A DNA stretch of 64,000 nucleotides from contig CAVRAY010000002.1 of the NCBI GenBank assembly GCA_963719225.1, positions 96,001 to 160,000 of the forward strand, in the 5' to 3' direction. Positions 28,054 through 51,081 of the stretch are shown in pieces; the stretch's first letter is position 1, and every line of letters begins with the position of its first letter. The position numbers and the translations under genes were made by a program. Under the pieces are notes generated by a model. That model searched no databases. It was not told the origin of the DNA and was given only the letters and a program-made list of their open reading frames with translations. Origin of the DNA: Thermoanaerobaculia bacterium (lineage in GTDB: Bacteria > Acidobacteriota > Thermoanaerobaculia > UBA5066).

Positions 28054-28450
28054 GACCCGCGGACGCTTACCGGGCTCGAGCACGTTGAACGGATTCTCCG
28101 CGCGGTCGAGGACGAAGCTCTGCATGCGCTGGCTCATCCCGATACCGGCCTTCCCCGCGATCACGCTTGGCAGCCAGCCGCCCGACGGCGTGACCGAGAC
28201 GACCCAGCCCTCCGCGTCCGCCGCCTCGACGGAGGTCGTGCCGGAGAAGAAAGGCCCGGAGAAGGGAGATTCTTCGAGAGTGGAAGAGGCGGCGTCCCGG
28301 CGCGAGAGGTGGACCGCGGGTTCCGGAGCGGCCTCGCGGCGCGCCGGGGCCGTCCTCCACCTTTCTAAGAGACTCTTGAACGGATTCTCTTCTCCCTGGA
28401 ACGGATAAGGGTTCCCGGGCTTCACGTTGGGGTCGTTTCTCGTCCAGTCA
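28054..28450 (-). pseudogene. ggt: Internal fragment of a gamma-glutamyltransferase gene
   Basis: GTTSVEAADAEGWVVSVTPSGGW...GIGMSQRMQSF...PGKRPRV matches the start of the GGT small subunit (catalytic Thr); both ends of the gene are missing. Confidence 0.8.
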
Positions 28451-28784
28451 CTCGCCTTCATCCATGCTACTGCCGGATGCCTGATCATTCTGATCCGGGA
28501 ATACGCGTTGTATGCCACGGCACTCGATGTCCCCGCACTATTTTGTCAGCGGTCCCGACCGTTCACGCCCTCATGCCATCACCATTGCCGTCATGATCAG
28601 AATTGCGATGAACGCCATGAGCCGCGAAAGAACCACACGCACCTGTGGCGCCCAATGCCGCGCCCGAACGGCAAGACCGCCTAATTAAGCCTGCGCATCG
28701 GGTTAGAGCTACCGCGCAGCGTTGCCCCGCCATGCTACGGGCGGCGCATGTGGTTGAACCGCGCGATTTGAACCTCTCCGGCTC

Positions 28785-32664: not shown

Positions 32665-33270
32665 ACCGGAATCGGTGGATCTGAGGACCCCGCCGCCATA
32701 TGTCCAGGCCTAGATCGTGGCGGGGTTGGCAGGATTGATGGCCTGGGCTGGCACGTTCAGGTTCGTAACTTCCGCCATGGCGGCGGTCCACGTCCCACCA
32801 GCGTCAGTGGACTTGAAGACCCCGCCAGCCATCCCGGCATAGAGTGTAGCGGGGTCTACGGGATTTATGGCCAGAGCCAGGACCTGCAGGTTCGTGAGTC
32901 CCGTGTTGGCGGCGGCCCAGGTGCTGCCGGAGTTGGTGGACTTGAAGACCCCGTCGATCGTCGCAGCGTAGAGCGTAGCGGGGGTCGAGGGATTGATGGC
33001 CAGGGCGCTGACGGCCCCGGACGTGAGTCCCGTGCTGGCGTCCGTCCAAATGCCGCCGGCGTCAGTCGACCTGATGACCCCGCTGCCGCCCGCGGCGTAG
33101 ATCGTGGCGGGAGTCACTGGGTTGATGGCCAGAGCTGTGATGTTTCCGTCGAATGGCCCGCCGCCCGTCCAGACGCCCTGTCCGGCGTGAGCGACCGTGG
33201 AGAACGATGTGCCGATCGCCAGGAGGAGGCAGGCTGCCGTGTAACGCAGTGGAGAGTCTGTGTGTCGCAT
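32665..33270 (-). pseudogene. 5' half of the split BNR-repeat gene
   Basis: Signal peptide plus ~3.5 repeats; premature TAG at 32712-32710, after which the frame continues AWTYGGGVLRSTDSG up to the insertion. Confidence 0.85.
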
Positions 33271-36300: not shown

Positions 36301-36690
36301 GTCTGTCAGGCCAGTGTTGATGGCTATCCAGCTCTCCCCGCCATTGGTGCTCTTGAAGACGCCGCCCTGAGTACCGGCGTACACCGTGGCTGGGTTCGAG
36401 GGGTCGATGGCCAGGGCGTAGACGCCCACGTTCGTCAGTCCGGTGTTGGCGGCAGCCCATGTGCCGCCCGAGTCGGTGCTCTTGAGGACGCCGCGGCCGT
36501 CGCCTGTGCCGGCGTAGAGCGTCGCCGGGTTCGCGGGGTTTATGGCCAGGGCTCTGATGTCCCCGCCGTAGGGTCCGTTGGTTGTCCAGGCTCCGACGCC
36601 CGCCGAGACTGTCGATGCGGGAGAAGCCAGGCCTGCGAGTATGAGGAGGGGAAGAAGACGGCGGATGCGGTTGTGCGTGGCGTTCTTCAT
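33307..36690 (-). CDS. Secreted BNR/Asp-box repeat beta-propeller protein with two tandem ~235-aa C-terminal domains
   Basis: Signal peptide; about 14 repeats of ALAIDPxxPATLYAGT..GVFKSTxGGxSW; duplicated LLP.SAHSSG...ASVIDETTNDPT domain. Confidence 0.92.
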   Translation of the reverse strand: MKNATHNRIRRLLPLLILAGLASPASTVSAGVGAWTTNGPYGGDIRALAINPANPATLYAGTGDGRGVLKSTDSGGTWAAANTGLTNVGVYALAIDPSNPATVYAGTQGGVFKSTNGGESWIAINTGLTDTYVNTLAIEPMTPATLYAGTLLAGVFKSTNGGASWTAINTGLTSTLVIALAVDPSTPTTLYASTANEGGGVFKSTNGGGSWTAINTGLTNVSVDALVIDRSTPATLYAGAYNGAFKSTNGGESWTAINTGLANRYVYALVIDPSAPATLYAGTYGGGVFKSTNGGGSWSPINSGLTDSGVQALAIDPSGATLYAGTLLGVFKSTDGGESWTATNTGMKSSVTALAVGPSAPTTVYAGSYPNGSVFKSTDGGGSWTAIQALYSKLQALAVDPSAPDTVYAGTSSDFYYEYPGFYKSTDGGAHWSGSLGSYVFALGSVYALVIDPLSPATLYAGTRSYREGGGGLFKSTNGGGSWSAINTGLQLAPDTYVTYVTALAIDPSTPATLYAGTSNGGAFKSTNGGGSWSAINAGLTATRVENLVIDPSKTATLYAGTDRGVFKSTNGGSTWAAANTGLTNLSVNALAIDPTTPATLYAGTNGGVLRSTDSGGTWEAINTGLPSLYVNALALAPTGATVTLYAGLEGGGVWQLTAPAASTITALLPTSAHSSGVNGAFYTTNVAVANTGVSAASFTLKFLGNNQDGSTGPERSFNLDPGKSTTFLDVLGSVFSQTNNFGAIRITSNSSTLDIVSVTSTPGFGGTFGQAIPTIPFTDLIPAGSTRSILYIREGDGFRSNLILASGSSVTTEVDVALVSPAGETLATKTYPVPPNGMTQISRVVRDMGVSGPVTGARLVLSSSTTGASFTALASVIDETTNDPTAVLAQPLAVSGSAPYIWLLPASAHSSGLNLAFYTTKVAVANVGAAPANFTMKFLGNNQDGSSGPEKTFNLESGKSVTYLDVLGSVFNQTSNFGAIRISSDTPSLNIVSVTSTPGFGGTLSQTIPAVSASNLIPAGSSGSILYIREGDGFRSNLILASNADVSTTVDAALVSPAGATLATRSYSVPPNGMTQINRVVRDMGVSGLVTGARLVLSSSTPGAAFTGFASVIDETTNDPTAVEAK

Positions 36691-36806
36691 GGTCCCCTTC
36701 CTACGTGATGATCAAGATGTCGCCGCGACGTCGGGAAGTCGTTGGAGAAACAATGGAAAGTTCCGGGATTCTTCCGGGAGCGCTGATGCGGATTCGATTC
36801 GGGAAG
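36650..36806. repeat. Duplicate of the 39330-39490 block (signal-peptide codons, divergent promoter, first codons of the wHTH-FHA gene)
   Basis: ATCAAGATGTCGCCGCGACGTCGGGAAGTCGTTGGAGAAACA is identical in both copies; remnant ATG at 36786 reads MRIRFGK versus MRIQFGE. Confidence 0.9.
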
Positions 36807-36844
36807 GTGCCGGGCCGGGCTCAGGGCCCGAACGGCCTGCCCGC

Positions 36845-39373
36845 TCACGGGTAAACGAAGAAGTACGGGTCGTAGAGCAGCGTCTTGTTTCCGGGTGCGC
36901 TGTGATACTCCTTCGACTGTCCGCTGACGGTGTCCGTAACGTCGATCCAGAATTCCACGTCCGTGAACGTCGGGATCGCGATCCAGGCCCGGCCGTTATC
37001 CGTCGCCGTGTTGATCCGGATCAGATACTCGTACGTGCTCGCGTTCGCGATCCAGAAGGCGCCTATAACGTCGGTCAGCTTCGCCTTTGAGAGGGTCGAC
37101 ACGGCGCCGCCCGCGTACTGGTTCCTCCAGTGGCTGCGGATCCGGTAGCGCCCCCCGGCGAGGCACATTGTGGCCGCGTCCTCGACACAGCTACTCGCCC
37201 CAGCGGACGCCACGGTGATCGACTTCGTCGTCGCATTCGAGCCGCCGCTGTTGCTCGCGGTAAGCGTAACCGGGAACGCGCCCGCCGTCGCAAAGGCGTG
37301 GGTCGGACTCTGCGCAGGGGAGCTAAACCCGTCCCCGAAATCCCACGACCACGACGTCGGCCCGCCGGTCGACGTGTCCGTGAACTGGATCGTCTGGCCG
37401 GCTGAGGGGGACGAAGGGGTGAACGAGAAGTTCGCGATGGTGCCGCTCGTAGGAGCTGTCAATTGCCACACGCTGCCGCCGTAGAGTCCGGCGTAAAGGG
37501 TCGTCGCTCCTGTGGGATCGAGGACGAGAGTTTTGATGTTCAGGTTCGGCAGACCAGCATTAACGGCCTCCCACGTACTGCCGGAGTTGGTGGACCTGAA
37601 GACCCCGCCGCCCCAGATCGCGGCGTAGAGCGTTATCGGAGCTGCTGGATTGATGGCCAGGGCAGTGACGTGCATGCCCGTCAGCCCCGTGTTGGCGGCG
37701 GCCCATGTGTCGCCAGAATCGACGGACTTGAAGACCCCGCCGTTGTATGTCCCGGCGTAAAGCGTGGCGCTAGTCGAAGGATCGATGGCCAAGGCGAAGA
37801 CGTTCAGGCCCGTCAGGCCCGAAGCAGCCCAGCTGGCCCCGGAGTCGGTGGACTTGAAGACTCCGCCGGGGCCGTATGTACCGGCGTAGAGGGTAGCCGG
37901 GGACGAGGGATCGATGGCCAAGGCGCTGAAGTACGCGTTCGTCAGGCCCGTATTCGCGGCGGTCCAACTGGCCCCCGAGTCAGTGCTCTTGAAGACGCCG
38001 CCGCCCAACGTGCCAGCGTAGAGCGTGGCGGGGGTCGTGGGGTTGATGGCAACGGCACTCACGTTCAGGTTTGTCAATCCCGTGCTGGCGGCCGCCCACG
38101 TACCGCCGGAGTCCGTGGACTTGAAGAGTCCGCTGCCGTTCGTCCCGGTATAGAGGGTTGTGGGGCTCGACGGATTGATGGCGAGGACGTATGGTGAATT
38201 CGACAATCCCGTGTTGGCGGCGGTCCAGGTGCCGCCTGAGTCGGTGGACTTGAGGACTCCTCCGCCGCCGTACGTCCCGGCGTAGAGCGTGGCGGGGGTC
38301 GTGGGGTTAATCGCCAGGGCCAAGACGTCTACGTTTGTCAGGCCCGTGTCGGCACGGACCCACGTGCTCCCTGAGTCGGTGGACTTGAAAACCCCATCGC
38401 CCGCGGCATAGAGCGTGGCAGGCGCCACGGGATTGATGGCCAGGGTTCGGATCGAAAAGTCCGTCGTTTCCCTATGGACGGCGACCCATGTCCCGCCAGC
38501 GTTGGTGGACTTGAAGATTTCGCCACCGCCCGCGGCGTAGAGCGTTGTGGGGGTCCGCGGATCGATGGCCAGGGCGCTGGCCCAATTCACCAGTCCACTG
38601 TTGGCGGCTCCCCACGTGCGGCCGGAATTGATGGACTTGAAGACTCCGCTGTTCGTCAAGACGTAGAGCGTTGTCGGCGTCGCGGGATCGATGACCGGGG
38701 TGGAGACGGAGTTGAACCACCACGGGTCGTACGGCAGTCCCACGTTGGCGTCGGCCCAGGTGCCGCCGGAGTCACTGGACCTGAAGACTCCGCCACTCCC
38801 CGCGGCGTATAGCGTTGTGGGAGTCGCGGGGTCGATGGCCAGGGAATAGACGTCCACGCTCGGCAGTCCCTCGCTGGCGGCGGCCCAAGTGCCGCCGGAG
38901 TCGGTGGACTTGAAGACCCCGCTGCCGCCCGCGGCGTAGATCGTGGCGGGAGTCACTGGGTTAATGGCCAGGGCGGAGATGTACACGCTCGGCAGTCCCT
39001 CGCTGGCGGCGGCCCAGGTGCCGCCGGAGTCCGTGGACTTGAAGACTCCGTCATTCGCCCCGGCGTAGAGCGTGGCGGGAGTTAGTGGGTTGATGGCCAG
39101 GGCGTAAACGGACACGCCGGTCAGGCCGCTGTTGACGGCGGCCCAACTGGCTCCGCCATCGGTGCTCTTGAAGACGCCGCCGCCATTCGCCCCGGCATAG
39201 AGCGTGGCGGGGTTCACGGGATCGATGGCCAGGGCTGTGATGTCTCCGCCGTACGGCCCACCGGTCGTCCAGACCCCGACGCCCGCCGCGACCGTCGAGG
39301 CGGGAAAGGCCAGGCCAACGAGAATGAGGAGGGGAAGAAGAGGGCGGATTCGGCTGTGTGCGGCGTTCTTCAT
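36845..39373 (-). CDS. Secreted BNR-repeat beta-propeller protein with PKD domain and Cys-containing C-terminal domain
   Basis: Signal peptide; about 14 repeats; PKD motif FTDTSTGGPTSWSWDFGDG; C-terminal CVEDAATMCLAGGRY...VTDT.SG..KEY. Confidence 0.92.
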   Translation of the reverse strand: MKNAAHSRIRPLLPLLILVGLAFPASTVAAGVGVWTTGGPYGGDITALAIDPVNPATLYAGANGGGVFKSTDGGASWAAVNSGLTGVSVYALAINPLTPATLYAGANDGVFKSTDSGGTWAAASEGLPSVYISALAINPVTPATIYAAGGSGVFKSTDSGGTWAAASEGLPSVDVYSLAIDPATPTTLYAAGSGGVFRSSDSGGTWADANVGLPYDPWWFNSVSTPVIDPATPTTLYVLTNSGVFKSINSGRTWGAANSGLVNWASALAIDPRTPTTLYAAGGGEIFKSTNAGGTWVAVHRETTDFSIRTLAINPVAPATLYAAGDGVFKSTDSGSTWVRADTGLTNVDVLALAINPTTPATLYAGTYGGGGVLKSTDSGGTWTAANTGLSNSPYVLAINPSSPTTLYTGTNGSGLFKSTDSGGTWAAASTGLTNLNVSAVAINPTTPATLYAGTLGGGVFKSTDSGASWTAANTGLTNAYFSALAIDPSSPATLYAGTYGPGGVFKSTDSGASWAASGLTGLNVFALAIDPSTSATLYAGTYNGGVFKSVDSGDTWAAANTGLTGMHVTALAINPAAPITLYAAIWGGGVFRSTNSGSTWEAVNAGLPNLNIKTLVLDPTGATTLYAGLYGGSVWQLTAPTSGTIANFSFTPSSPSAGQTIQFTDTSTGGPTSWSWDFGDGFSSPAQSPTHAFATAGAFPVTLTASNSGGSNATTKSITVASAGASSCVEDAATMCLAGGRYRIRSHWRNQYAGGAVSTLSKAKLTDVIGAFWIANASTYEYLIRINTATDNGRAWIAIPTFTDVEFWIDVTDTVSGQSKEYHSAPGNKTLLYDPYFFVYP

Positions 39374-39414
39374 GGTTTCCCTCCCGGCGTGATAATCAAG
39401 ATGTCGCCGCGACG

Positions 39415-39465
39415 TCGGGAAGTCGTTGGAGAAACACTGGGAAGTTCCGGGGTTTCTCCGGGAGC
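39415..39465. promoter_or_regulatory. 11-bp-periodic direct repeats, putative wHTH operator (module 1)
   Basis: GGGA/GGAG/GGGG cores at about 39417, 39428, 39439, 39450 and 39460; conserved in the duplicate at 36733, 36744, 36755, 36765 and 36776. Confidence 0.6.
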
Positions 39466-39470
39466 GCTGA

Positions 39471-40127
39471 TTGAGGATTCAATTCGGGGAGTGCGTGCTC
39501 GACTCCGAGACGCGGCAGCTCTCCGTTCGAGGTGAGGCGGTTCACCTTTCGCCGAAGGCCTTTCAGTTTCTGGAGCTGCTCCTGGAGAGCCGTCCCAAGG
39601 CCGTATCCAAGAGCGAGATCCACGAGCGCCTCTGGCCCGGCACGTTCGTTTCGGAGGGCACGCTCACGAGCCTTCTCGCCGAGGTCCGGTCGGCGACCGA
39701 AGACAGCGCTCGAGACTCGCGTTTCGTGCGGACCGTTCACCGCTTTGGCTATGCCTTCAGCGGACCTGCCGAGGAACATCGGGGAAGGGCTTCCGTCGCC
39801 GAAGGCCAGAACTTCGTTTACCGGCTCATCTGGGGAAACCGCGAAATCGCGCTGGGCCCAGGCGAGAACTTGTTTGGACGCGACGAAGATGCCGTCGTCT
39901 GGATCGACGATGCTCTCGTGTCGCGCCGGCATGCCCGAATCGTCATCGACGCGACGGGGGCGGTTCTGGAAGATCTCGGCAGCAAGAACGGGACGTACCT
40001 GCGCGGGAAGAGAATCGAAAACTCCAGGGAGCTCGCCGACGAGGATCAGATGACGATCGGACCGGCCTCGATGATCTTCCGCGTCTTCAAGCAGACGGCT
40101 TCGACGGCCACTGCGGTCGAGAAATAG
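39471..40127 (+). CDS. Winged-helix (OmpR/CadC-type) plus FHA domain transcriptional regulator
   Basis: LSPKAFQFL...LWP...VRTVHRFGYAF wHTH; GRD...VSRRHARI...LEDLGSKNGT FHA. Confidence 0.93.
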   Translation: MRIQFGECVLDSETRQLSVRGEAVHLSPKAFQFLELLLESRPKAVSKSEIHERLWPGTFVSEGTLTSLLAEVRSATEDSARDSRFVRTVHRFGYAFSGPAEEHRGRASVAEGQNFVYRLIWGNREIALGPGENLFGRDEDAVVWIDDALVSRRHARIVIDATGAVLEDLGSKNGTYLRGKRIENSRELADEDQMTIGPASMIFRVFKQTASTATAVEK

Positions 40128-40187
40128 TCAGAACGTCACTCCCCTGCCTGTGGATTGTGCGACGATCGGAGACGAGCGCTGGTGCCG

Positions 40188-43157
40188 ATGAAGGCCAGGA
40201 TCTCAATTGTCTCCCTGCTGAGCGTAGTCCTTGGACTCGTCGGTGGGAGCGCGCTCTCCCAGGTGGACGTCACGACCGGGCGCATCGTGGGAACCGTCGT
40301 GGATCCCGATGGGCAGCCCTTGCCGGGCGCGACGATCGCCGCGAAGAGCAAGGCGACCGGCTTGACGCTCACGGGTCTCACCGATGCACGCGGCACCTAC
40401 CGCATCGTGAGCATGCCCGTCGGAACCTATTCGGTGACGGCGTCGCTTTCGGGTTTCGGAAGTCAAAGCGAGCCCGACGTCGTGATCACCCTCGGCTCGG
40501 CCCGCACGGTCGACTTCAACCTCGGTCTCGCGCCCCGCTCCGCGGCCATCACGATCACCGACGAGGTTCGCACAGTCGAAACGACGCAGACGGCCAGCCA
40601 AACCACGGTCGACAACAACGCGATCAGGAGCCTCCCCATCAACGGGCGCAACTTCTCGGACCTCGTCCTCCTCGTGCCCAACGCGCAGAAGGACCCCGTC
40701 AAGGGAAACATCCAGCTCGCCGGCCAGCGCGGCATCAACACGAGCGTCACGCTCGACGGCGTCGACTACAACGACGCGTTCTTCGGCGGTTCGTCCGGAG
40801 ACGGCTCCGCCGAAGGCCGGGCTCCGTTCACCTTGTCGCAGGAGTCCGTCCGTGAATTGCAGGTGATCGGAAACGGCGCCTCGGTGGAGTTCGGGCGCTC
40901 CGGCGGCGGCTTCGTGAACGTCGTCACGAAGAGCGGGAGCAACGCTCTACACGGCTCGGCATTCACTTACAGCCGTCCAAAATCGCTCACGGCCCGATTC
41001 GCAGACGGCACGGATCCAAAGGACCAGCAGACGCAGCAGGTCGGCGCGTCGATCGGTGGGCCGGTTCTTCGCAACAAGCTGTTCTTTTTCGGAGCGTGGG
41101 ACCAGCAGAAACAGTCGACGACGATTCCGATCACGTCGAGCCTCATCACCGACCCGGACATCGCCGCTCGCTATCCGAGGCTCGGACAGACGGACACGAG
41201 CTACGTCCAGGAGCAGAACGGCAGGGTGTTTTTCGGCCGTGTCGACCTGCAACTCGGCAGCCGGCACCGCGTTTACGCCCGGGCGAACTACGCGACGTAC
41301 GACGGGCTGAACGGCACGTCGAGCAGCCAGGCGCAGTCCACGAGCCACAACGGTATCGAGGGGCTGACGTCGAGCTCGTACGTGGCGAGCTGGAACGCGC
41401 TCTATTACCCAAGCACCATCAACGACCTCAACTTCCAGTATGCCCGGAACGATGTCCCGCGCAGGGACAAGGGCCTGGGCCTGCCGGAGATCCGGCTCGG
41501 AAGACCCAGGGGCCCATTTGCCTCGTTCGGCGAGGTCAGTCTCCTCCCGACCCTGGCGACGGACGACCGCATCAGCATCGGCGACACGGCGGCCTTTCTC
41601 GCCGGCGCTCACATGATGAAGGTGGGTGGCGACTACAACGACACCGGCGCGGACCAGATCTTCAAGACCTACTGGCGTGGCAGCTTCAGCTTCAGCTACG
41701 TGACGGCGGACCTTGCAAAGCAAGCCTTTCTCGCCGGCAAGTGGACCCAATACGTCGAGTTCCTCGGCTTGAAAGGCAACACGGTGGACCAGGCCGGACG
41801 GTTCAACGCCCGCCAGAGGGAACTCGCCTTCTTCGTTCAGGACCAGTGGTACGTCAGCTCGTCGCTGACCATCACGGCGGGCCTGAGGTACGAGCGCCTC
41901 GACAATCCCGACGATCCGGTTCTAGACGCGAGAAAGGTCGTCGTGCCGGGCGCCAGGAACGTCCAGCCCGACGCGCAGATTCCGGATGCAAACAACCAGT
42001 GGTCGCCGCGCCTGTCGCTCGCGTGGTCGCCCGGGAGGGACGCGAAGAGCGTCGTACGCATCTCCCTCGGCCGCTACTGGAGCCGCACACCGGCAGTCCT
42101 CTTCGCCCAGCTCTACTCGAACAACGGCCTTGCCGGGGCGACCTACGCCGTGGACGCCAACACCGCGGGGCCGACCGGATTCCCCGCCCCCGGGTGGGGA
42201 ACGGACTTCAACCCGAACGCCGTCCAGCAGCTCGGGAATCTGCCGCCCGGCACCTCCATCGGGGCCCTGAGCGTTTACAGCATGTCGCCGGATTTCAAGA
42301 ACCCGCACACCGACAAGATTACGGTCGGCGCCGAGCGCGAGCTCTTCGGCATCGCCTGGGGCCTCGAAGGGATCTGGGCCAAGAGCTACGACCTCGAGCG
42401 CCTGGACGACCCGAACCTCCTCGCCGCGCCGGCCGCGAACTGCCCCCTGCTCGACCCGAATTCCGGCTCGGCCTGCTACGGCGCCTCGCCGATTTCCGCC
42501 GCGCAGAACTCGGTCAACCCGAACTACGGGCGCCTCACGGTCTACGCGTCGGACGCGCGTTCGGATTTCAAGTCCTTGACGCTGTCCTTCCGGAGGAATT
42601 TCTCGAATGGCTTCCGCTTCTTCGGCTCGGTCACGCGCGCGTCCGATTACGACACCGACTCGAACGAGCGCAACTTCGTCGGCGTCACGCTCTGGGACCG
42701 CCACAACCCTGAGCTGAACTGGGGCCCGTCCGATCGCGACATCGAGTGGCGCGGCGTGGCGAACGCCTCGTATGAGCGCCGGTTCGGGAAAGTCGACGCG
42801 TTCTCGTCCGTTCTCTTCGTCTACCAGACCGGCCACCCGTACACCGCGTACACGGGCAGGGACGACAACAAAGACGGGGCCTTTTTCGACCGCGCCACGA
42901 TCGACGGCGTCGTCGTCGGACGGAATTCGTTCCGCCAGCCCGACTTCTACACGGTGGACGTGCGCTTCGGCCTGGGCTTTCGGCTGGGGCCCGGCACGCT
43001 TGCGGTGTTCCTCGACGTTTTCAACCTCACGAACACGGGCAACCGCTCGACGAGCCTGACGATTTATCCGGGCAGCGGATCGACGTCCTTCGGCGCACTC
43101 GACGCCTTCACGACGACCCCGCGCACGCTACAGCTTTCGGGCCGGTACGATTTCTAG
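40188..43157 (+). CDS. TonB-dependent receptor, Oar-like with carboxypeptidase-regulatory N-domain
   Basis: Signal peptide, G.I.GTV.D..G..LPGATI, LPINGRNF, EFGRSGGG.VNVVTKSG, FVQDQW, terminal PRTLQLSGRYDF. Confidence 0.93.
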   Translation: MKARISIVSLLSVVLGLVGGSALSQVDVTTGRIVGTVVDPDGQPLPGATIAAKSKATGLTLTGLTDARGTYRIVSMPVGTYSVTASLSGFGSQSEPDVVITLGSARTVDFNLGLAPRSAAITITDEVRTVETTQTASQTTVDNNAIRSLPINGRNFSDLVLLVPNAQKDPVKGNIQLAGQRGINTSVTLDGVDYNDAFFGGSSGDGSAEGRAPFTLSQESVRELQVIGNGASVEFGRSGGGFVNVVTKSGSNALHGSAFTYSRPKSLTARFADGTDPKDQQTQQVGASIGGPVLRNKLFFFGAWDQQKQSTTIPITSSLITDPDIAARYPRLGQTDTSYVQEQNGRVFFGRVDLQLGSRHRVYARANYATYDGLNGTSSSQAQSTSHNGIEGLTSSSYVASWNALYYPSTINDLNFQYARNDVPRRDKGLGLPEIRLGRPRGPFASFGEVSLLPTLATDDRISIGDTAAFLAGAHMMKVGGDYNDTGADQIFKTYWRGSFSFSYVTADLAKQAFLAGKWTQYVEFLGLKGNTVDQAGRFNARQRELAFFVQDQWYVSSSLTITAGLRYERLDNPDDPVLDARKVVVPGARNVQPDAQIPDANNQWSPRLSLAWSPGRDAKSVVRISLGRYWSRTPAVLFAQLYSNNGLAGATYAVDANTAGPTGFPAPGWGTDFNPNAVQQLGNLPPGTSIGALSVYSMSPDFKNPHTDKITVGAERELFGIAWGLEGIWAKSYDLERLDDPNLLAAPAANCPLLDPNSGSACYGASPISAAQNSVNPNYGRLTVYASDARSDFKSLTLSFRRNFSNGFRFFGSVTRASDYDTDSNERNFVGVTLWDRHNPELNWGPSDRDIEWRGVANASYERRFGKVDAFSSVLFVYQTGHPYTAYTGRDDNKDGAFFDRATIDGVVVGRNSFRQPDFYTVDVRFGLGFRLGPGTLAVFLDVFNLTNTGNRSTSLTIYPGSGSTSFGALDAFTTTPRTLQLSGRYDF

Positions 43158-43186
43158 ACCCCGCGCCGCGGCAGCCGCCTGCGCCC

Positions 43187-45790
43187 TCACTTCAACCCCT
43201 CGACGAGGAAGAGCTCGGAGGAATAGCGGTGGTGCGTGTAGACGCAGGCCTTCCCGTCCGCCGAGAAGAGGATCGCCCCGATGGCTCCGCCACCCGACGG
43301 ATTGACGGGCGGGATCTCCTTCCAGAGCTCCCGGCGTCCGGTGCGTGGATCGAGGCGGTGGACACGCGTGGGGATCGCCGGCTCGCCGGCGCGCAGCTCG
43401 TCCGCGCTGCGGACGTAGAGGAGCTTTCCGTCCGCGGAAAACTGATTCGGCTCCTCACCGGGAAGGAGGCCGACGACCTTGTGGGTTTCCGTCGTCTCCG
43501 TTGAATAGAGGGTCCAGTCGCCATCGGCCGCTTGCGCACAGAAGAAGCGTCCGTCGCCCGACAGCAGCGTCCCTCCGACCCCCAGGGGCGTGACCGCGCG
43601 GGGCTTCCCCCCGGAGAGATCCTGCACCCATGCACGCCGTCCGTGCGCGGAATCCTCCGCCATGAACCAGATTCTTCGACTGTCCGGAAAGAAACCCATC
43701 CGTCCCCCCTGGAGGAGGCCAGGCGTCTCGATGAGCCGTTTCTGTCCGGGACCGGTTGGAATGAGCAGAATCAGCGGGTCCGGACGGGCGCTGGCGAGCA
43801 CCAACTTTCCGTCCGGCGAAAGCGCCCACGCATAGCCGTCGCCCAGCCGTTTCGGCGGCGCGCCGTCGGTCCGCCGCAGATAGAGCCCGCGCCGGCCGCC
43901 CTGCCCCATGTCGTTGAAGAGAAGAGTGTCGCCGCTCGGAGCCAGATCCACGGCCACCGGGCGGTCGAGGTGGGAGAGATTCCGTGGGCGGGCCTCGCCC
44001 GGAAAGTCCCCCAGGATCTCCGAGCTCTCGGAGATGCGACCGAGGAGCACACGACCATCCGACGAGATGTCGTGGAGGACGAAGTCTCCCGGCAGCGTCG
44101 TCACGCGCCTCTTCGGGCGGCCCGGAACGACGGCGAACAGCTCGGTGGTCCCGCCCGCGACGGAGTTGAACCAGATCTCATTCGTCGCGCGGCTCCACGC
44201 AACCTCCAGGGCTCGCTCGCCCAGATCGCGGACCTGGCCACCGGGCTCCGTCACGTAGAGGTTGAGGCGGGAGACGAACGCAACCCGATCACCCGACGGC
44301 GAGATCGAAATGCGGGGATAAAGAGGGGTTCTTTCGTAGAGCACCTTGCCCACCGGAAACTCGAGCTGGTTCTTGCCTCCGACTTGGCGCACGACCGCGA
44401 GTGACTTGCCGTCCGGGCTCCAGTTTGCGAAGTACACGTCTTCGAGAAGCTCTCGTGGGGTGCCGCCGGCGAGCGGCGCCTCGGCGAGCACCCCCCGGGC
44501 CTGACTCGGGCTGGCACCCGAAATGTCCGAGTGTGGCGCGCGAAAAAACAAGGAGAACCGCGGCGCGAGAAGAAGCGCCATCTGGCCGGAGGAGGAGATG
44601 GAGAGAATCTCCGCCCCCCGAAGGCCGAGCGAACGCGTCTCTGGGCTGTCGAGGCGCGCGGTGAAGAGCTCGAGGGGCTTGCCCTCCCACTGCGCGGCGT
44701 ACACCACCGTTTGCCCGTCCGGCGCAAACCGCGCCGTCGAGATGCCGGCGCCGCGAAATGTCAGCTGCCGGAAGCGTGGCGGGGAGGTGCTCGACCGCTC
44801 GACGCGCCGGCCGAGCAGATAGATTCCGCCCAGCGCTGCTAGCAGCGCAGCCGCCAGACCGATCGCTCCCCATCGTGCCCGGCGCCGCGGAGTCTCGAGC
44901 GAGTGTCTGGCCTCGCCCGAGAGATCCGAGACGTGCTCCCGCAGGGTTGCGAGATCTCGCGCGAGGTCCTCCGTCGCCGCATAGCGGCCCCGCGGCTCCT
45001 TGGCGAGGCACCGCTCGACGATCCAGCGCAACTGAGAGGGGGCCTTGGAATTGAGTGCCGCAATCGACTCCGGCTGCTCCCGAATGATCGCCGCGAGTAC
45101 TTCCGGCCTGGTCGCCCGGTCGAATGCCTGTTTGCCAGTCATCATCTCGTAGAGGATCGAGCCAAAGGAGAACTGATCGGACCGGAAATCCACCGCTTGT
45201 CCGGCCGCCTGCTCGGGCGACATGTAGCCGACGGTCCCCAGGACGACACCGGGCTCGGTCGCGCCGGAAATTGTGATGCCTGGCTCCGTCTGCCCTCTTT
45301 CCGACTCGGAATGCGTCAACTTCGCGACGCCGAAATCGAGGATCTTGACGAAGCCGTCGCTCGTGACCATGACGTTTTCGGGCTTCAGGTCCCGGTGAAC
45401 GATGCCCGACGCATGAGCCTTGGCGAGCCCGTCGGCCACCTGAGCGGCGATCGAGAGCACCTTGCGCAGAGGAAGAGGGTCGGCATAAAGCAACTCCCGC
45501 AACGTATTTCCATCTACCAGCTCCATGACGATGAAAGAGGTCGAATCGCTCTGTCCGACCTCGTGGATCGTCACGATGTTGGGATGGTTCAAGGCGGAGG
45601 CCAGTCGCGCCTCCGCCTCGAAGCGTTTCAGGCGAGCCGTATCGGAGGACAGCGCGGCGGGCAGCACCTTGATCGCGACCTCGCGCTCAAGCCGCGTGTC
45701 CCTGGCACGGTAAACCTCCCCCATCCCGCCCGCTCCAAGCGGGCTCAGCACCTCGTACGGGCCAAGTCGCGTACTCGCGGGAATCGTCAT
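43187..45790 (-). CDS. Membrane Ser/Thr kinase with PD40/TolB-like beta-propeller C-terminus
   Basis: LGAGGMGEVY, HRDLKPEN, DFG, GTVGYMSPEQ; one TM; FAPDG/WSPDG repeats. Confidence 0.95.
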   Translation of the reverse strand: MTIPASTRLGPYEVLSPLGAGGMGEVYRARDTRLEREVAIKVLPAALSSDTARLKRFEAEARLASALNHPNIVTIHEVGQSDSTSFIVMELVDGNTLRELLYADPLPLRKVLSIAAQVADGLAKAHASGIVHRDLKPENVMVTSDGFVKILDFGVAKLTHSESERGQTEPGITISGATEPGVVLGTVGYMSPEQAAGQAVDFRSDQFSFGSILYEMMTGKQAFDRATRPEVLAAIIREQPESIAALNSKAPSQLRWIVERCLAKEPRGRYAATEDLARDLATLREHVSDLSGEARHSLETPRRRARWGAIGLAAALLAALGGIYLLGRRVERSSTSPPRFRQLTFRGAGISTARFAPDGQTVVYAAQWEGKPLELFTARLDSPETRSLGLRGAEILSISSSGQMALLLAPRFSLFFRAPHSDISGASPSQARGVLAEAPLAGGTPRELLEDVYFANWSPDGKSLAVVRQVGGKNQLEFPVGKVLYERTPLYPRISISPSGDRVAFVSRLNLYVTEPGGQVRDLGERALEVAWSRATNEIWFNSVAGGTTELFAVVPGRPKRRVTTLPGDFVLHDISSDGRVLLGRISESSEILGDFPGEARPRNLSHLDRPVAVDLAPSGDTLLFNDMGQGGRRGLYLRRTDGAPPKRLGDGYAWALSPDGKLVLASARPDPLILLIPTGPGQKRLIETPGLLQGGRMGFFPDSRRIWFMAEDSAHGRRAWVQDLSGGKPRAVTPLGVGGTLLSGDGRFFCAQAADGDWTLYSTETTETHKVVGLLPGEEPNQFSADGKLLYVRSADELRAGEPAIPTRVHRLDPRTGRRELWKEIPPVNPSGGGAIGAILFSADGKACVYTHHRYSSELFLVEGLK

Positions 45791-45856
45791 CGGACCACCG
45801 GAAATCATATCGCCCGGGGGGCCGTCGCCTCATCGTGTACCGGTGCCCTGACCGTT

Positions 45857-47611
45857 CTACGGGCCCTCCTTCCAGGTGAACTTCCGCGACGGGTAATGAC
45901 GCACGAGACCGCCGGGGCCCTGGAAGACGACCGAGAGCTCGTGCTCACCCTTGTCCCCCGGGTGAAAAGCGAAGGAGCTCTCATAACCCGCAGTCGAGCA
46001 GTCTCCGAGTGACGGGAGCGCCGCCTGGACGTCCGGGCGCGCGACGCGCGACTGGCTGATCGCGAATCGCGGAGCGCCGTCGATGAGGACGGTCACCCCG
46101 AGGTCGCTCCCCGGAACGCGCGCCCAGCCCTTCACGGTGAGGTCTCCCGTCACAGTGGCGCCCTCGGCCGGCATGTCGATCGAGCCCGTCAGCGTCGCCG
46201 CCTCCGTGCCGATCGGAATCAGCAGCGAGCCGTCCATCTCCGCCCAGGAGATGAACACCCCCGCGACGGATTTTCCGAGCTGCACACCTGCCACGTTGTC
46301 CATCTGGTAGTGAATGCCGGCCCAGATTCTCGAGTCGCCGCCCTCCTTGCCGACGGCCCGGATGAAATCGGCACGCGTCGGGAACAGGTACGCGAGGATC
46401 TCGGACCGGCTCGCCGAGAACGTCGAGTGGTTCGAGGGATAGGACGGGAAGTTGGGAACCGCGAAGAGCGGCACGATCGCGGGATCGAGCTGATGTGGCC
46501 GCGGGTACCAGTACGCAAACTTCCCGTCCTGGCTTGCGATGAAGGCGTCGTACTGCGTCGAGGCGAGGAGCGCGTACACGCGCGCCGCGCGGGGCGGATT
46601 CCGGTCCAGCCCGTCCTCGAACATGAACTTGTCGGCGTACCGGTAGGGCCAGCTGTTGAGGCCTTCCGGACTCTGCCAGTAATAGGCCTTGTAATTGCTC
46701 ACGAACGTCCGCGGAAAGTTTCGAACCGTCGCCACGTCGGCCAGCACCTCGGGCGTGTCGCACGCCGGCGGCGCCGCCGGTCTGAACTCGCTGGCAGAGG
46801 TCAGCAGAAGTGGTCTCCAGGTCCCGCCCGTGACGTTGCCCGGATTCGTGCCGGTCCACTTGCAGGGTCCGGTCGGCACGCTGCCCGTCCAGACGGCATC
46901 CGAACCATCCGCTTTCGCCTTCGCGATGACCTGCTCGGCGACTTTCCGGCCGAGCTCGAGTCCGGCCGTGTAGTCGCTGGGGTACTGAAGGCCGGCGAGG
47001 ACCCGGGACCAACCCGCCTCCTCGGCCATCGCCTGGAAAGACTGTGCCTCCGCGGGCAGGAAATACGCGAGCACGGACGCCGCGGCCTGCGCCGTCGCGG
47101 CGTGCTCGGACGGATACGACGGGCTGTTCGGAACCGACAGGGCCGTGGGCAGGCCGCGCCGGACCTCGCTCGGCCGCCGACGGTTGTAGACGTACTTTGA
47201 TTCCCACGTCGCGATCGTCGCGTCGTACATAGCCTGCGCCAGGTACGTGTAAACGCGGTGCGCGTAAGCGGTCGTCGCCGTTCCGGCGAGGAGGCGCGCG
47301 TTGAGCATATCCATCCAGCGATAGGCCGGGGCCCCGGCGTCCCAGAACTCGATTCGCTGAAGGGTCTGCGCATCGTTGCGGCCGACGAGGCTTCCGAGAG
47401 CGTTCAGTTCGGCTTGGGTCTCCGCGAATCCCGGAGGCGCGGGGGCGCGAAAGTCCTTGCCGGAGGAAATGACCCACGTGCGCCAGGTGCCGGCTGTCGG
47501 CTCGATCTGGGCGCGATCGCGTCCCCCGCCGTCCGCGTGGGCGCGTGACGCGATGCAGGCGACGATGAGCGACATGCCGATGCCGGTCGCAAGATGTGAT
47601 CGAGTCTTCAT
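45857..47611 (-). CDS. Secreted vanadium haloperoxidase/PAP2-like protein with duplicated catalytic domain and C-terminal Ig-like domain
   Basis: Two sets of K-x-RP / PSYPSxH / SR..AG.xY..D motifs; signal peptide; tail GSIDMP.EG..V.G...V.GWA. Confidence 0.85.
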   Translation of the reverse strand: MKTRSHLATGIGMSLIVACIASRAHADGGGRDRAQIEPTAGTWRTWVISSGKDFRAPAPPGFAETQAELNALGSLVGRNDAQTLQRIEFWDAGAPAYRWMDMLNARLLAGTATTAYAHRVYTYLAQAMYDATIATWESKYVYNRRRPSEVRRGLPTALSVPNSPSYPSEHAATAQAAASVLAYFLPAEAQSFQAMAEEAGWSRVLAGLQYPSDYTAGLELGRKVAEQVIAKAKADGSDAVWTGSVPTGPCKWTGTNPGNVTGGTWRPLLLTSASEFRPAAPPACDTPEVLADVATVRNFPRTFVSNYKAYYWQSPEGLNSWPYRYADKFMFEDGLDRNPPRAARVYALLASTQYDAFIASQDGKFAYWYPRPHQLDPAIVPLFAVPNFPSYPSNHSTFSASRSEILAYLFPTRADFIRAVGKEGGDSRIWAGIHYQMDNVAGVQLGKSVAGVFISWAEMDGSLLIPIGTEAATLTGSIDMPAEGATVTGDLTVKGWARVPGSDLGVTVLIDGAPRFAISQSRVARPDVQAALPSLGDCSTAGYESSFAFHPGDKGEHELSVVFQGPGGLVRHYPSRKFTWKEGP

Positions 47612-47719
47612 AACTGCCGTCCTTTCACTTTCGCGTGTGGATTAACCGCCGTTCCTGAGACTCCGTCGCATTCCCGTGGCTCTCAAAATGGGTTCGCCTC
47701 CTCGAGATGTCTCAGGAGT

Positions 47720-47760
47720 GCGATAAGCTCTCGCTACCTTTTCGCTAAGGGTTCGCGGAT
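47720..47760. promoter_or_regulatory. 11-bp-periodic direct repeats, putative wHTH operator (module 2)
   Basis: GCGATAAG (47720), TCGCTACC (47731), TCGCTAAG (47742), TCGCGGAT (47753). Confidence 0.68.
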
Positions 47761-48403
47761 GCGGCTGACGATCGGTCGTTGCCTCTTCGATTCGGGAGCC
47801 CGGGAGGTTTCTCGGGACGGTCGGCCCGTGGCGATTTCTCCGAAAGCCTTTCAGCTCCTGGACCTCCTCATCGGCAGGCGCCCCAACGCCGTCTCGAAGG
47901 AGCAGCTTCACGAGGTCCTCTGGCCGGACACGTTCGTTTCCGACGCGAACCTGCCGAACCTCGTCGCGGAGCTGCGTGCGAGCCTCGGCGACGAGGCCCG
48001 AAATCCCCGCGTGATCCGGACGGTGCCGCGGTTCGGCTACGCGTTCTGCGGCGAAGCGGTGCCGGTGCCGAGCGAGCCGGGCCGCCCAGCCGGATTCAAG
48101 CTGACCTGGAGCGGCCGCGCGATCGCGCTTCGGGAAGGAGAGAACATCCTGGGCAGAGAGCCCGACGCCGCGGTCTGGCTCGACGTGGGCAGCGTGTCGC
48201 GCCGCCATGCGCGCATCGTCGTGTCGGGAGATTCGGCGACGCTGGAGGACCTCGGCAGCAAGAACGGAACGTTCCGGAAGGGTAAGGCGGTCACACGGCC
48301 GGCCGCCCTTGCCGACGGCGATCGCTTACGCATCGGAACCGTGGAGATGACCTTACGGTACTACGCTGGGGCCGTCTCGACGCAGGGGGTGCGAAGCCGG
48401 TGA
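47759..48403 (+). CDS. Winged-helix plus FHA domain transcriptional regulator (paralog of 39471)
   Basis: ISPKAFQLL...LWPDTFVS...IRTVPRFGYAF; GRE...VSRRHARI...LEDLGSKNGT. Confidence 0.93.
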   Translation: MRLTIGRCLFDSGAREVSRDGRPVAISPKAFQLLDLLIGRRPNAVSKEQLHEVLWPDTFVSDANLPNLVAELRASLGDEARNPRVIRTVPRFGYAFCGEAVPVPSEPGRPAGFKLTWSGRAIALREGENILGREPDAAVWLDVGSVSRRHARIVVSGDSATLEDLGSKNGTFRKGKAVTRPAALADGDRLRIGTVEMTLRYYAGAVSTQGVRSR

Positions 48404-51081
48404 GCGGACCACACGCCGCTGCGGGCCGCGACCTGACGGGGTCCCGACTCGGCCACTACGAGATTCGCGCGCGCCTCGGCGCAGGCGGCATGGGAGACGT
48501 CTACAGAGCGCAGGATTCGCGGCTCGAGAGGGAGGTCGCGCTGAAGGTCCTGCCGGAAGACTTCTTCGATGACAAGGACAGGAGAAGGCGCTTCGAGCAG
48601 GAAGCGAAACTGCTCGCCGCGCTCAGCCACCCGAACGTCGCGGCCGTCTATTCGTTCGAAGAGGTTCCCGGCTTCACCGGTTCCCCTGCCCGGCACCTTC
48701 TCGCGATGGAGCTCGTCGAGGGAAAGACGCTGCGCGAGCTTCTCGCCGCGGGTCCGCTTCCTCCGAAGACCCTTCTCGACCTCTCCTGCCAGGTCTCGAC
48801 GGGCCTGGCGCAGGCGCACGAGGCGGGGATCGTCCATCGGGACCTCAAGCCCGAGAACATCATGGTCTCGAAGGACGGCTTCGTGAAGATCCTCGACTTT
48901 GGTCTGGCGAAGAGGCTGCCCTTCGAACGGGGCGCTCCGGTCTCCGGCGCGACGGTGACCGCCCTGACGGAAGCCGGGCACGTCGTCGGGACCGCGGGTT
49001 ACATGTCGCCCGAACAGGCCGGGGGCGGCGCCGTGGACTTTCGCTCGGACCAGTTCTCGTTCGGATCGATCCTGTACGAGATGGTCGCGGGCGTGAGAGC
49101 GTTTCAAAAAAAGACCGCCGTCGAAACGCTTTCGGCGATTCTGAACGAAGAGCCGAGACCCGTCGCCGAGATCAACCCGGCCGCGCCCCCGCCTGTGCGC
49201 TGGGTCATCGAGCGGTGCCTGGCCAAGGATCCGGCGGGCCGCTACGCCTCCACCCAGGACCTGGCGAGAGAGCTGAGAACCGTTCGCGATCACTTGACGG
49301 AAGTGTCTGGCATGTCGGCCCCCGCTTTCGCCGCCGCCGCGCCGCGCCGCCGGATCATCGCGCTCATGGGATTTGCGGCAGCGATTCTTCTCGCGCTCGG
49401 CTGGGCGGCCGGGCGACTCCCCCGGGCTGGCGCTGCATGGGAAAACCCCCTGGCGGGAGCCCGCTTCACCCGACTCACGGACTTCGAAGGTTCAGAACTG
49501 GACGCGGTGATCTCAGCGGACGGCAAGCTCGTGGCGTTTCTCGCGGACCGTGATGGCCCGTTCGATGTCTGGGTGGGTCAGGTTGGCGGCACGGGATTCG
49601 TGAATCTCACGCGTGGGCGCTTTCCATCGCTGTACAACGCCTCCACACGCAACATCGGCTTCACCCCGGATGGCACTCAGGTTTGGGTCCACGTCACCGG
49701 CAAAGGCATGACCGAGCACACCATCTGGCTCATCCCCACGCTCGGAGGCGAGGCCCGCCCGTTCCTCACCAATGCGGTTTCCGTCGCCTGGTCACCCGAC
49801 GGGAAGCGCCTCGTCTACCACGAGCCCACGAAAGGGGATCCGGTCTTCCTGGCTGACGCGACCGGTGGCGGCATCGCCAGGCGGTTCGAGGACAAGCCGG
49901 GGCTTCACTGGCACGACCCGGCGTGGGGATCTGACGGACGTTCGCTCTTCTTCTCGCGCGGCCTGCCGCGGGAGGACATGGATCTCTGGCACCTTCCCGT
50001 CGCAACGGGCCCGCCCGAGCGGATGACGAAGCACAGTGCGCGGGTGCGTTATCCGGCGCCGCTAAACGCCAGAACGATCGTCTACTGCGCGATCGGCGAA
50101 GAGGCTTCGGGTTCCGCCCTTTACGCGCTCGACGTGGAGTCCCGGGTGACGCGACGCATCAGCTCCGGACTCGAGGAGTACCTTTCGATCGCCGTTAGCG
50201 CGGACGGCATGCGTCTCGTCGCCGCAGTGGCAAATCCGGATCGGAATCTCTGGACCGTTCCGGTAACCGAGGGGGTCGTCGAGGAGGCGAGCGCCACACG
50301 TGTTTCCCTGTCCGCGGTGCGGGCGATCCGTCCGCGGTGGGACCACGATTCTCTGCTCTTCCTTTCGTACAAGGGCGGCTCGGATCGCCTGTTCAGGAGC
50401 AGCGGCCGGGAGGTCTCGGAACTTTGGAATCCGGTCGGAGGTTCGATAAGCGGGGCGCCCGCCGTTTCCCCCGATGGCGCAAGTATCTGTTTTCCGGTTC
50501 GACGGGCCGGCCGCACTCAGCTTCAGATCATTGCCGCGGACGGCACGAACCCGCGAATCCTCGGAGCGTCTCTCGAGCTCCATGACGGCGCGACCTGGTC
50601 GGCCGACTCGAAGTCGATTGCGGTCTCCGCGACGGACGAGACGGGCTTCGGGCTCTTCAAGGTGCCCGTGGACGGGGGAGCCGTGCAGCGCCTCGTCACG
50701 GGAATCGTCTGGAATCTGGTCTGGTCGCCGGACGGCCGCTTCATCGTCTATTCGGAATCGATTGCCGGGCCGCTCCGGCGCATTCGCGCCGTGACGGCGG
50801 CCGGGACACCACACCCCGTTCCGGAGCTGACCGTTTGGCATGAGGCGGATCGATACCGCTTCCTCGGCGACAGCAGACGTCTCGTCGTCCTGAAGGGACC
50901 GTACCGGCACCAGGACTTCTGGCTGGTCGACCTCGAGACGGGAAAGGAGCGTCGACTCACGAACCTCAAGCCGGGATACGAGCCCAACAGCTTCGACATT
51001 TCGCCCGACGGTCGCCAGATCGTGTTCGACCGCGTTCGGGAGAACTCCGACATCGTCCTGATCGACCGGGTCCGGCAATGA
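48400..51081 (+). CDS. Membrane Ser/Thr kinase with PD40/TolB-like beta-propeller C-terminus
   Basis: GAGGMGDVY, HRDLKPEN, DFG, GTAGYMSPEQ; one TM; SPDG repeats; GTGA overlap with the regulator. Confidence 0.95.
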   Translation: MSGPHAAAGRDLTGSRLGHYEIRARLGAGGMGDVYRAQDSRLEREVALKVLPEDFFDDKDRRRRFEQEAKLLAALSHPNVAAVYSFEEVPGFTGSPARHLLAMELVEGKTLRELLAAGPLPPKTLLDLSCQVSTGLAQAHEAGIVHRDLKPENIMVSKDGFVKILDFGLAKRLPFERGAPVSGATVTALTEAGHVVGTAGYMSPEQAGGGAVDFRSDQFSFGSILYEMVAGVRAFQKKTAVETLSAILNEEPRPVAEINPAAPPPVRWVIERCLAKDPAGRYASTQDLARELRTVRDHLTEVSGMSAPAFAAAAPRRRIIALMGFAAAILLALGWAAGRLPRAGAAWENPLAGARFTRLTDFEGSELDAVISADGKLVAFLADRDGPFDVWVGQVGGTGFVNLTRGRFPSLYNASTRNIGFTPDGTQVWVHVTGKGMTEHTIWLIPTLGGEARPFLTNAVSVAWSPDGKRLVYHEPTKGDPVFLADATGGGIARRFEDKPGLHWHDPAWGSDGRSLFFSRGLPREDMDLWHLPVATGPPERMTKHSARVRYPAPLNARTIVYCAIGEEASGSALYALDVESRVTRRISSGLEEYLSIAVSADGMRLVAAVANPDRNLWTVPVTEGVVEEASATRVSLSAVRAIRPRWDHDSLLFLSYKGGSDRLFRSSGREVSELWNPVGGSISGAPAVSPDGASICFPVRRAGRTQLQIIAADGTNPRILGASLELHDGATWSADSKSIAVSATDETGFGLFKVPVDGGAVQRLVTGIVWNLVWSPDGRFIVYSESIAGPLRRIRAVTAAGTPHPVPELTVWHEADRYRFLGDSRRLVVLKGPYRHQDFWLVDLETGKERRLTNLKPGYEPNSFDISPDGRQIVFDRVRENSDIVLIDRVRQ

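Follow-up and report, generated by a model that had tools for sequence, protein, structure and literature searches.

How could a serine/threonine kinase in a bacterial membrane switch on one particular gene? The question is raised by a stretch of 64,000 nucleotides from a Thermoanaerobaculia bacterium (contig CAVRAY010000002.1), referred to here as the window. Twice in this window, a regulator consisting of a winged-helix DNA-binding domain (wHTH) and an FHA domain is encoded divergently from a signal-peptide gene, with a membrane Hanks kinase not far away. We put the chance at about two in three that such cassettes, each made up of a membrane Ser/Thr kinase, a wHTH-FHA regulator and a divergent promoter with repeats, act as a switch from kinase to gene, in which phosphorylation of a threonine in the regulator's tail leads to activation of the exported gene. 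The cassettes are real and non-random, and they make a well-defined candidate for transcriptional control by Ser/Thr kinases. Their architecture, linkage, residue conservation and promoter anatomy can be seen directly in the genomes compared.

The first regulator, reg1 (39471..40127, + strand), has 218 residues: an OmpR/CadC-type winged helix (1-96), a linker, an FHA domain (115-207) and a tail with S211-T212-A-T214 (T212 codon at 40104-40106). The second, reg2 (47759..48403, +), has 214 residues in the same order of winged helix, FHA domain and tail (S207-T208; T208 codon at 48380-48382). Both match Trans_reg_C (PF00486, E 1e-13 and 8e-16) and FHA, and the divergent signal-peptide genes begin 97 and 147 nt away, respectively. 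An earlier, sequence-only reading of the window had described two regulators of about 215 residues in this position, without the BTAD domain of the mycobacterial protein EmbR, and it was right on both counts: BTAD (PF03704) has no match in reg1, in reg2 or at the regulator loci elsewhere in the genome. Neither regulator reaches any NCBIfam cut-off. A search for a receiver domain gave no Response_reg match, and the PhoB and OmpR models align with residues 2-99 only, far below cut-off. No transmembrane (TM) segment is predicted in the regulators; the FHA domain occupies that place. In the structural model, the winged helix has helices at 28-39, 47-54 and 64-76 plus a wing, and a linker of about 15 residues runs straight from it into the FHA strands.

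The two kinases are kin1 (43187..45790, −, with the frame open to 45808) and kin2 (48400..51081, +). Each consists of a Hanks kinase domain, one predicted TM helix (at about 308-326 in kin1 and 319-338 in kin2) and a C-terminal propeller, of PD40 type in kin1 and PD40/TolB-like in kin2. The Gly loop, A-x-K, HRDLKPEN, DFG and YMSPE are retained in both, together with a basic patch, the single hydrophobic helix and the PD40 repeats. A GTGA overlap couples kin2 to reg2. The propeller-bearing membrane kinases and this overlap, too, had been noticed correctly. The association of kin1 with reg1 had been proposed from closeness, which does not hold: kin1 lies on the minus strand, 3.06 kb from reg1, a gene for a TonB-dependent-receptor-like outer-membrane barrel (40182..43157, +) stands between them, and reg2 is nearer (1.97 kb). 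The pairing itself is backed by synteny. The best match to kin1 among the fetched loci is the kinase of a locus in another genome, L009 (81% over 869 columns), where the reg1 orthologue (83%) is followed, 35 nt on, by the end of the kin1 orthologue and the receptor gene is missing from between the two. Because of this arrangement kin1 likely belongs with reg1, and its assignment to reg2 by distance was rejected.

Is the arrangement more than a local accident? In what follows, G000 is the genome of the window and C1: marks its coordinates, while L and P labels denote loci and proteins from other genomes. The G000 assembly is 97% complete with 6% contamination, and it holds 6 full wHTH-FHA genes and 66 Hanks kinases. 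Every one of the six regulators has a kinase within 3.1 kb (at 0, 19, 642, 1775, 2044 and 3060 nt), against 351/4032 genes within 3 kb in the background, and a divergent signal-peptide-like gene 89-186 nt away, against 300/4028. Background rates were taken from G000 with our own gene caller and a hydrophobicity rule for signal peptides, which 1113/4028 genes pass. When the 66 kinases are ordered by a profile of paired kinases, whose training set contained kin2, the six linked ones take places 1, 3, 5, 12, 14 and 17. The foreign sample comprises 77 loci from the best 80 of 578 confirmed matches, with 81 full plus-strand copies scored. Where at least 1.5 kb of flank was available, a kinase in the same orientation comes next in 37/74 copies (background 46/4028), 20 times with a 4-nt overlap; where 5 kb could be read on each side, 31/50 copies have a kinase no further than 5 kb away (background 527/4032). 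The upstream gene is divergent in 66/76, and both divergent and signal-peptide-like at its N-terminus in 45/76. With one copy per 65% cluster, the corresponding counts are 23/42 for a co-oriented kinase next door, 19/28 for a kinase within 5 kb, 36/41 for a divergent gene and 23/41 for a divergent signal-peptide-like one. A neighbourhood enrichment of this kind around wHTH-FHA genes without BTAD is what the sequence-only reading had anticipated.

The divergent genes themselves vary. The 37 targets fall into 18 BLAST families, which rules out a single conserved target family. Twelve have a Pfam match (6 sortilin/BNR propellers, 3 CarboxypepD_reg, and 1 each of Vgb lyase, beta-helix and tannase) and 25 have none. 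In L009 a different exported gene lies divergent from the reg1 orthologue, so the target can be exchanged; target genes appear to be exchanged freely between genomes.

The regulator family is large. Of 7996 candidates scored in a search, 7993 passed at E up to 0.001. Representatives at 50% identity number 2114 when E is limited to 1e-30, and 141 of their top 150 are full length (195-250 aa). Of 31 related genomes, 27 have the family; in a draw of 251 from the whole phylum, with a limit of E 1e-40 and only 12 scored candidates for each genome, it turned up in 20, a patchy distribution beyond this class. By their labels, 76 loci of the foreign sample belong to Acidobacteriota (Thermoanaerobaculia, Vicinamibacteria) and one to Longimicrobiales. 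One unpublished genome, G019, is included in both of these genome counts (27/31 and 20/251), in an alignment of 110 regulators (as L090) and in one of the held-out promoter misses given below (L116); no conclusion rests on it.

If the regulators bind DNA, a common element can be expected upstream of them. Gibbs sampling on the divergent strand of 55 representatives (<65% identity, out of 110 regulators) returned a 44-nt motif with an information content of 18.1 in 3/6 runs, compared with 10.9-11.0 for shuffled sequence. Between 5 and 60 nt upstream of the regulator, identity at a lag of 11 nt is 0.365 vs 0.263 (z 13.5, 55 representatives), and this signal is absent in a control window. In a leave-one-out test, 38/55 representatives have their best site at 0-20 nt from the start of the regulator (12% by chance). 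To anchor the element, 33/55 sites were kept (score at least 8, a GAC-like core, at most 60 nt away) and 22/55 dropped. The layout that emerges is a run of 11-bp repeats ending in nnGACW, 17-18 nt, and then nAnnnT. This last hexamer lies outside the region used for motif finding, and yet it occurs in 33/33 anchored sites, at spacer 17 in 17 and spacer 18 in 16, with none at 16, 19 or 20. The consensus of sigma-70 promoters is TTGACA/TATAAT, and the element reads as a weak promoter of this type with an upstream operator and a probable −10.

Both window cassettes have it. Divergent promoter 1 (39391..39460, −) consists of 11-bp repeats at 39427-39460, a −35-like ACGACT at 39421-39426, 17 nt, and a −10-like CATCTT at 39398-39403; a candidate −10 for reg1, GATAAT, is at 39391-39396 on the + strand. 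It faces an exported BNR/sortilin-like propeller with PKD of 842 aa (36845..39373, −), the predicted reg1 target. Divergent promoter 2 (47685..47747, −) has repeats at 47714-47747, a −35-like GAGACA at 47708-47713, 17 nt, and a −10-like CATTTT at 47685-47690. Its predicted target, under reg2, is an exported PAP2-superfamily protein, acid phosphatase/haloperoxidase-like with two PAP2 stretches (45857..47611, −). When G000 was scanned with a matrix from 29 foreign sites, its own loci left out, 7 sites scored at least 25 in 9.5 million positions, and 0 did in 3.9 million shuffled ones. Four of the seven lie behind regulators, including those at 39460 and 47747 of the window; the others are a duplicate at 36776 and a divergent pair at C1:1089229 and C1:1089255. 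All seven precede signal-peptide genes. Promoter 1 scores 44.1 and promoter 2 scores 35.5; the best site of the fifth G000 regulator scores 19.7.

The repeat units are specific to each locus (identity 0.45 within vs 0.34 across loci; 0/5000 permutations). Loci with similar winged helices tend to have similar sites (rho 0.31-0.35, partial 0.22), whereas similarity of the FHA domain shows no such relation (−0.12, partial −0.07), in pairwise comparisons that are not independent of descent. The units of reg1 are of CCCGGA type and those of reg2 of TAGCGA type, which suggests that the two promoters are insulated from each other.

A natural experiment on promoter 1 can be found nearby. Its duplicate (36714..36776, −; repeats 36743-36776, −35-like ACGACT 36737-36742, −10-like CATCTT 36714-36719) scores 42.7, rank 3 in the genome, and lies ahead of an exported BNR/sortilin-like beta-propeller gene of 1127 aa (33307..36690, −), a predicted second target of reg1. 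Over 93 nt, the two promoter copies share 90% of their positions, compared with 19/31 and 34/61 for four-fold sites in the duplicated coding sequence. Operator, −35, spacer and −10 have been kept, while the regulator has been lost and GATAAT on its side has become GATGAT (36707-36712). This is what would be left by selection on a promoter controlled by reg1, with gene conversion as the alternative. A third, truncated regulator had been proposed at 36786, and this does not stand. The frame there (36786..36854, +) has 22 codons, of which only the six for MRIRFG resemble reg1; it is a by-product of the tandem duplication of propeller gene and promoter. A truncated third copy of the propeller gene (32710..33270, −; 186 aa) lies 36 nt downstream of the 1127-aa gene and is 52-60% identical to the other two copies.

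Two parts of the regulator are strikingly constant. The phosphothreonine pocket of the FHA domain (G136, R137, S151, H154, N173 and G174, forming G-R, S-x-x-H and N-G) is complete in 110/110 regulators and in 141/141 more distant members, and the FHA model superposes on the FHA domain of FhaA with an rmsd of 1.0 A. After the last FHA strand comes a tail motif, [S/T/P]-T-x-[T/S]. T212 is conserved in 104/110 and in 130/141 distant members, and a T or S at 214 in 106/110 and 125/141, the profile that ranked the distant members having contained the tail, which brings a small bias toward its conservation. In AlphaFold monomer models the tail is disordered (pLDDT 32-53) and its position is not fixed. 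The linker at 101-116 is equally flexible, and no position in it is conserved beyond about 30%. Since the tail carries a conserved threonine in a disordered segment of a kinase-linked FHA protein, it is most simply taken as a predicted phosphosite. This threonine lies 39 residues past the conserved Asn in 72/110. In the reg2 model the last FHA strand ends at 202 and the tail threonine is at 208, only 5-6 residues further. The termini of FHA domains sit at the end opposite the phosphothreonine pocket; binding to the protein's own pocket (in cis) is therefore unlikely, and binding to a neighbour (in trans) is favoured.

Some variants of the regulator were also seen. P0105 and P0122 have two tandem winged helices ahead of the FHA domain, as though a dimer had been fused for two repeats. 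In G000, C1:1722271-1724454 (−) encodes a one-component wHTH-TM-propeller regulator with the same type of winged helix (34-38% identity) and a weak propeller similarity to the kinases; it is consistent with a sensory role for the propeller.

How does this compare with known systems? The regulators share the DNA-binding fold of OmpR/PhoB and CadC/ToxR, with matches to CadC (5JU7), ToxR, PhoB and OmpR. PhoB and ToxR bind 11-bp direct repeats that extend up to the −35, and both this geometry and the translational coupling of sensor and regulator genes, as in OmpR/PhoB systems, recur here. Unlike two-component systems, there is neither a receiver domain nor a His kinase, and the predicted chemistry is that of a stable phosphothreonine; unlike CadC/ToxR, the regulators have no TM segment. 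A further difference is the order, with the winged helix first and the FHA domain second. FHA-containing sigma-54 enhancer-binding proteins have reportedly been described in Myxococcus xanthus (by Jelsbak et al. in 2005). They would likewise have FHA in place of a receiver in a transcription activator, but they are AAA+ sigma-54 activators and not winged-helix activators of sigma-70 promoters.

EmbR of Mycobacterium tuberculosis (SARP family, PDB 2FEZ/2FF4) is closer. It has an N-terminal OmpR-type winged helix and a C-terminal FHA domain, and among the ten best PDB sequence matches it alone aligns in both domains (E 2.6e-12). The membrane Hanks kinase PknH acts through the FHA domain of EmbR, and FHA-dependent phosphorylation raises promoter binding, according to passages of PMC4601284. 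The intact pocket and the adjacent membrane kinase with intact catalytic motifs are shared with this pair. Unlike EmbR (388 aa), the regulators here are about 215 aa long without BTAD, carry a conserved candidate phosphosite in a tail after the FHA domain, and belong to a large family that is modular, has a kinase subfamily to itself and varies in its exported targets. In SARP promoters, as presented in part of PMC10936776, the 3' direct repeat lies 8 bp from the −10; the repeats here run up to the −35, which leaves 17-18 nt to the probable −10. The lack of BTAD and the different promoter geometry rule out SARP membership, and the system would work like PknH-EmbR but fall outside that family.

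Dedicated membrane Ser/Thr kinases also adjoin a transcriptional output in the pairs PknT-EcfP of Vibrio and PknS-EcfK of Xanthomonas, as sections of PMC13147305 and PMC7826278 describe. Their output is a sigma factor of the ECF group, not a presumed activator at a sigma-70-type promoter, and no sigma factor was found among the genes scanned at 28785-52502. The tail has its nearest counterpart in FHA proteins switched by a conserved threonine in a disordered tail beside the domain (DgcB, GarA, OdhI, TIFA and MDC1). DgcB of Bdellovibrio, going by parts of PMC6733907, is an enzyme activated through FHA by an N-terminal tail of about 30 aa; in the regulators the tail is C-terminal and short, and the output is DNA binding.

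Taken together with these precedents, five steps may be proposed, which we infer from topology, conservation and analogy. The extracytoplasmic propeller, judging by its topology, would sense a signal. The kinase would then autophosphorylate its Thr-rich activation segment, where the FHA domain of the regulator would dock as in PknH-EmbR. Once docked, the regulator would be phosphorylated in its conserved S-T-x-T tail. The phosphorylated tail would bind the FHA domain of a neighbour, because the tether is probably too short to reach its own pocket, and copies would line up head-to-tail on the 11-bp repeats. This trans-tail step is the least certain; granted the pathway, it has an even chance of being right. 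Finally, the array upstream of a poor −35 would bring sigma-70 RNA polymerase to the divergent promoter, in the manner of PhoB or ToxR.

Several observations weigh against this picture. A kinase within 5 kb is missing from 19/50 well-flanked foreign copies, including a whole clade of nine loci. No operator scoring at least 19 belongs to the sixth G000 regulator (C1:1360630) in the genome scan, and in held-out distant loci 13/25 beat all 30 shuffles while 7/25 score at least 15, so the element is common but not universal. None of the three PP2C phosphatase genes of G000 is near a regulator. On the profile of paired kinases, 28 G000 kinases score at least 287, compared with 6 regulators, and nine tandem membrane Hanks kinases with propellers (C1:2293328-2319827) have no wHTH-FHA gene within 20 kb. 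In the comparison of regulator and kinase trees, nearest neighbours agree in only 14/38 pairs, and linkage alone predicts co-phylogeny. The modular pathway of the sequence-only reading is supported by the linkage and by the operator-like promoter that faces the divergent gene, but pairing is not one-to-one and some regulator clades have no kinase nearby. A propeller is likewise not an obligatory part: kin1 and kin2 have PD40 repeats, and 2/6 linked G000 kinases have another C-terminus.

The kinase excess has an explanation of its own, in which some 28 related kinases feed a few regulators and adjacency reflects the co-duplication of cassettes, not cognate specificity. With so many kinases of one subfamily for six regulators, most must signal elsewhere or converge, which argues against strict kinase-regulator pairs. 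Orphan kinase arrays exist, and the two operators at C1:1089229 and C1:1089255 have no local regulator. The closest regulator to reg2 (L063, 68%) is next to a kinase only 35% identical to kin2 over the full length. EmbR is itself phosphorylated by several mycobacterial kinases, as part of PMC6213207 reports. Such a network would leave unexplained the translational coupling in 20/37 adjacent pairs and the fidelity of kin1 to reg1 in spite of opposite orientation and an intervening gene. Over 38 adjacent pairs, regulator and kinase identities are correlated (Mantel rho 0.51, with 0.35 the highest value in 2000 permutations). Several clades can be recognised both in the regulator tree and in the kinase tree, a quick version, and they include paralogues from a single genome (L018, L041). 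We consider a many-to-few network unlikely.

Slightly more credible, though still doubtful, is a simpler use of the FHA domain, like that of EmbR and without oligomerisation. The domain would dock on the autophosphorylated kinase; the regulator would then be phosphorylated, in its winged helix or its tail, or would just be retained at the membrane until released, and the tail would have its effect in cis or via RNA polymerase without linking subunits. This agrees with the FHA role tested in EmbR (in the parts of PMC4601284 concerned) and with activation segments that average 3.3 Thr and contain T-x-T/S in 36/38 paired kinases; cis binding of the GarA/OdhI type is among the modes covered in part of PMC6733907. 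The fixed distance of the tail threonine and its short tether make cis binding awkward, however, and tandem 11-bp repeats call for an oligomerising module in a regulator that has neither receiver nor BTAD. Quite improbable is a reading in which the regulator does not activate the divergent gene and the repeats serve a constitutive sigma-70 promoter as UP-element or phased A-tract, or else are a site of autorepression. The matrix does show phased A-rich columns, and a protein bound to the repeats would sit downstream of the regulator's candidate −10, ahead of the start codon, and so repress the regulator as well. But the units are locus-specific and track the winged helix, the −35 and −10 match TTGACA/TATAAT as poorly as in activator-dependent promoters, and the operator was kept in a copy with no regulator to repress.

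A wider form of the switch proposed here can be put forward tentatively, and we think it more probably wrong than right in full. FHA domain and C-terminal phosphothreonine tail would replace the receiver domain, polymerising the regulator head-to-tail on 11-bp repeats. The result would be a widespread, dedicated signalling class with thousands of members in Acidobacteriota, orthogonal to His-Asp two-component systems, its paralogues insulated by kinase-regulator specificity and a code between helix and repeat. A full-text literature search found no description of the family, the tail or the promoter, most subscription papers and supplements lying outside its scope and a listing in some census table being possible. 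Bacterial Ser/Thr kinases are generally called pleiotropic, and their choice of substrate an open question, in passages of PMC4601284. In this family, kinase and regulator come matched with a predicted phosphosite and a predicted promoter, and many paralogous sets of them exist, so that pair specificity and FHA-tail switching become directly testable. If the switch is real, some of the as yet unexplained extra kinases of Thermoanaerobaculia and Vicinamibacteria would have an output, regulons could be predicted for many unannotated exported proteins (such as the 25/37 targets outside Pfam), and signalling parts orthogonal to two-component systems might become available.

Some further observations concern the same gene families. 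The clade without kinases (L034, L035, L038, L042, L043, L046, L054, L055 and L057) sits in surroundings that are constant and housekeeping-like, and the flanks fetched contain no kinase. Its proteins begin with MTFRFG and end in an STxTATG tail, FHA pocket and tail are intact, and the canonical promoter is absent. Next to the sixth G000 regulator, the kinase at C1:1361341-1364017 is split into frames of 718 and 204 aa by a frameshift or an assembly error. The nine-kinase array has no operator scoring at least 19. Other G000 kinases, which we presume from their N-terminal sequence to be ECF-linked, score far lower on the paired-kinase profile (for instance 182 vs 378-493). At C1:1088011-1089802, two divergent signal-peptide genes (370 and 162 aa) have operators of 44.5 and 33.8 with no regulator or kinase nearby; their repeats resemble those of the clade of regulator C1:395409, and a regulon in trans is possible.

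The PAP2 gene was considered as a resetting phosphatase, an idea not adopted because its product is exported. Its 83% orthologues adjoin kin2 orthologues in L080 and L097. In the window, kin1 begins 66 nt after it on the same strand; kin1 may be co-transcribed with this reg2 target, so that the second module could raise expression of the first module's kinase, a possible cascade.

Elsewhere in the window, the 1243-aa protein of 28785-32516 (−) lies in a stretch of lower GC (0.61-0.64). It has no Pfam or NCBIfam match; a lead in the ESM Atlas (0.80) points to an unnamed cluster of 77 members, and nothing ties it to the signalling system. Downstream of it, the frame at 27472-28518 has a weak codon-model score. 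The C-terminal part of the 1127-aa propeller protein contains an internal duplication (34027-34326 vs 33319-33618, 81% over 300 nt), and the duplicated domain, which has no Pfam name, is present in further exported G000 proteins. Genes for TonB-dependent-receptor-like proteins of about 950-1050 aa, such as the one between reg1 and kin1, recur beside regulator-kinase pairs in L014, L031, L032, L033, L063, L064 and others (within L010-L064).

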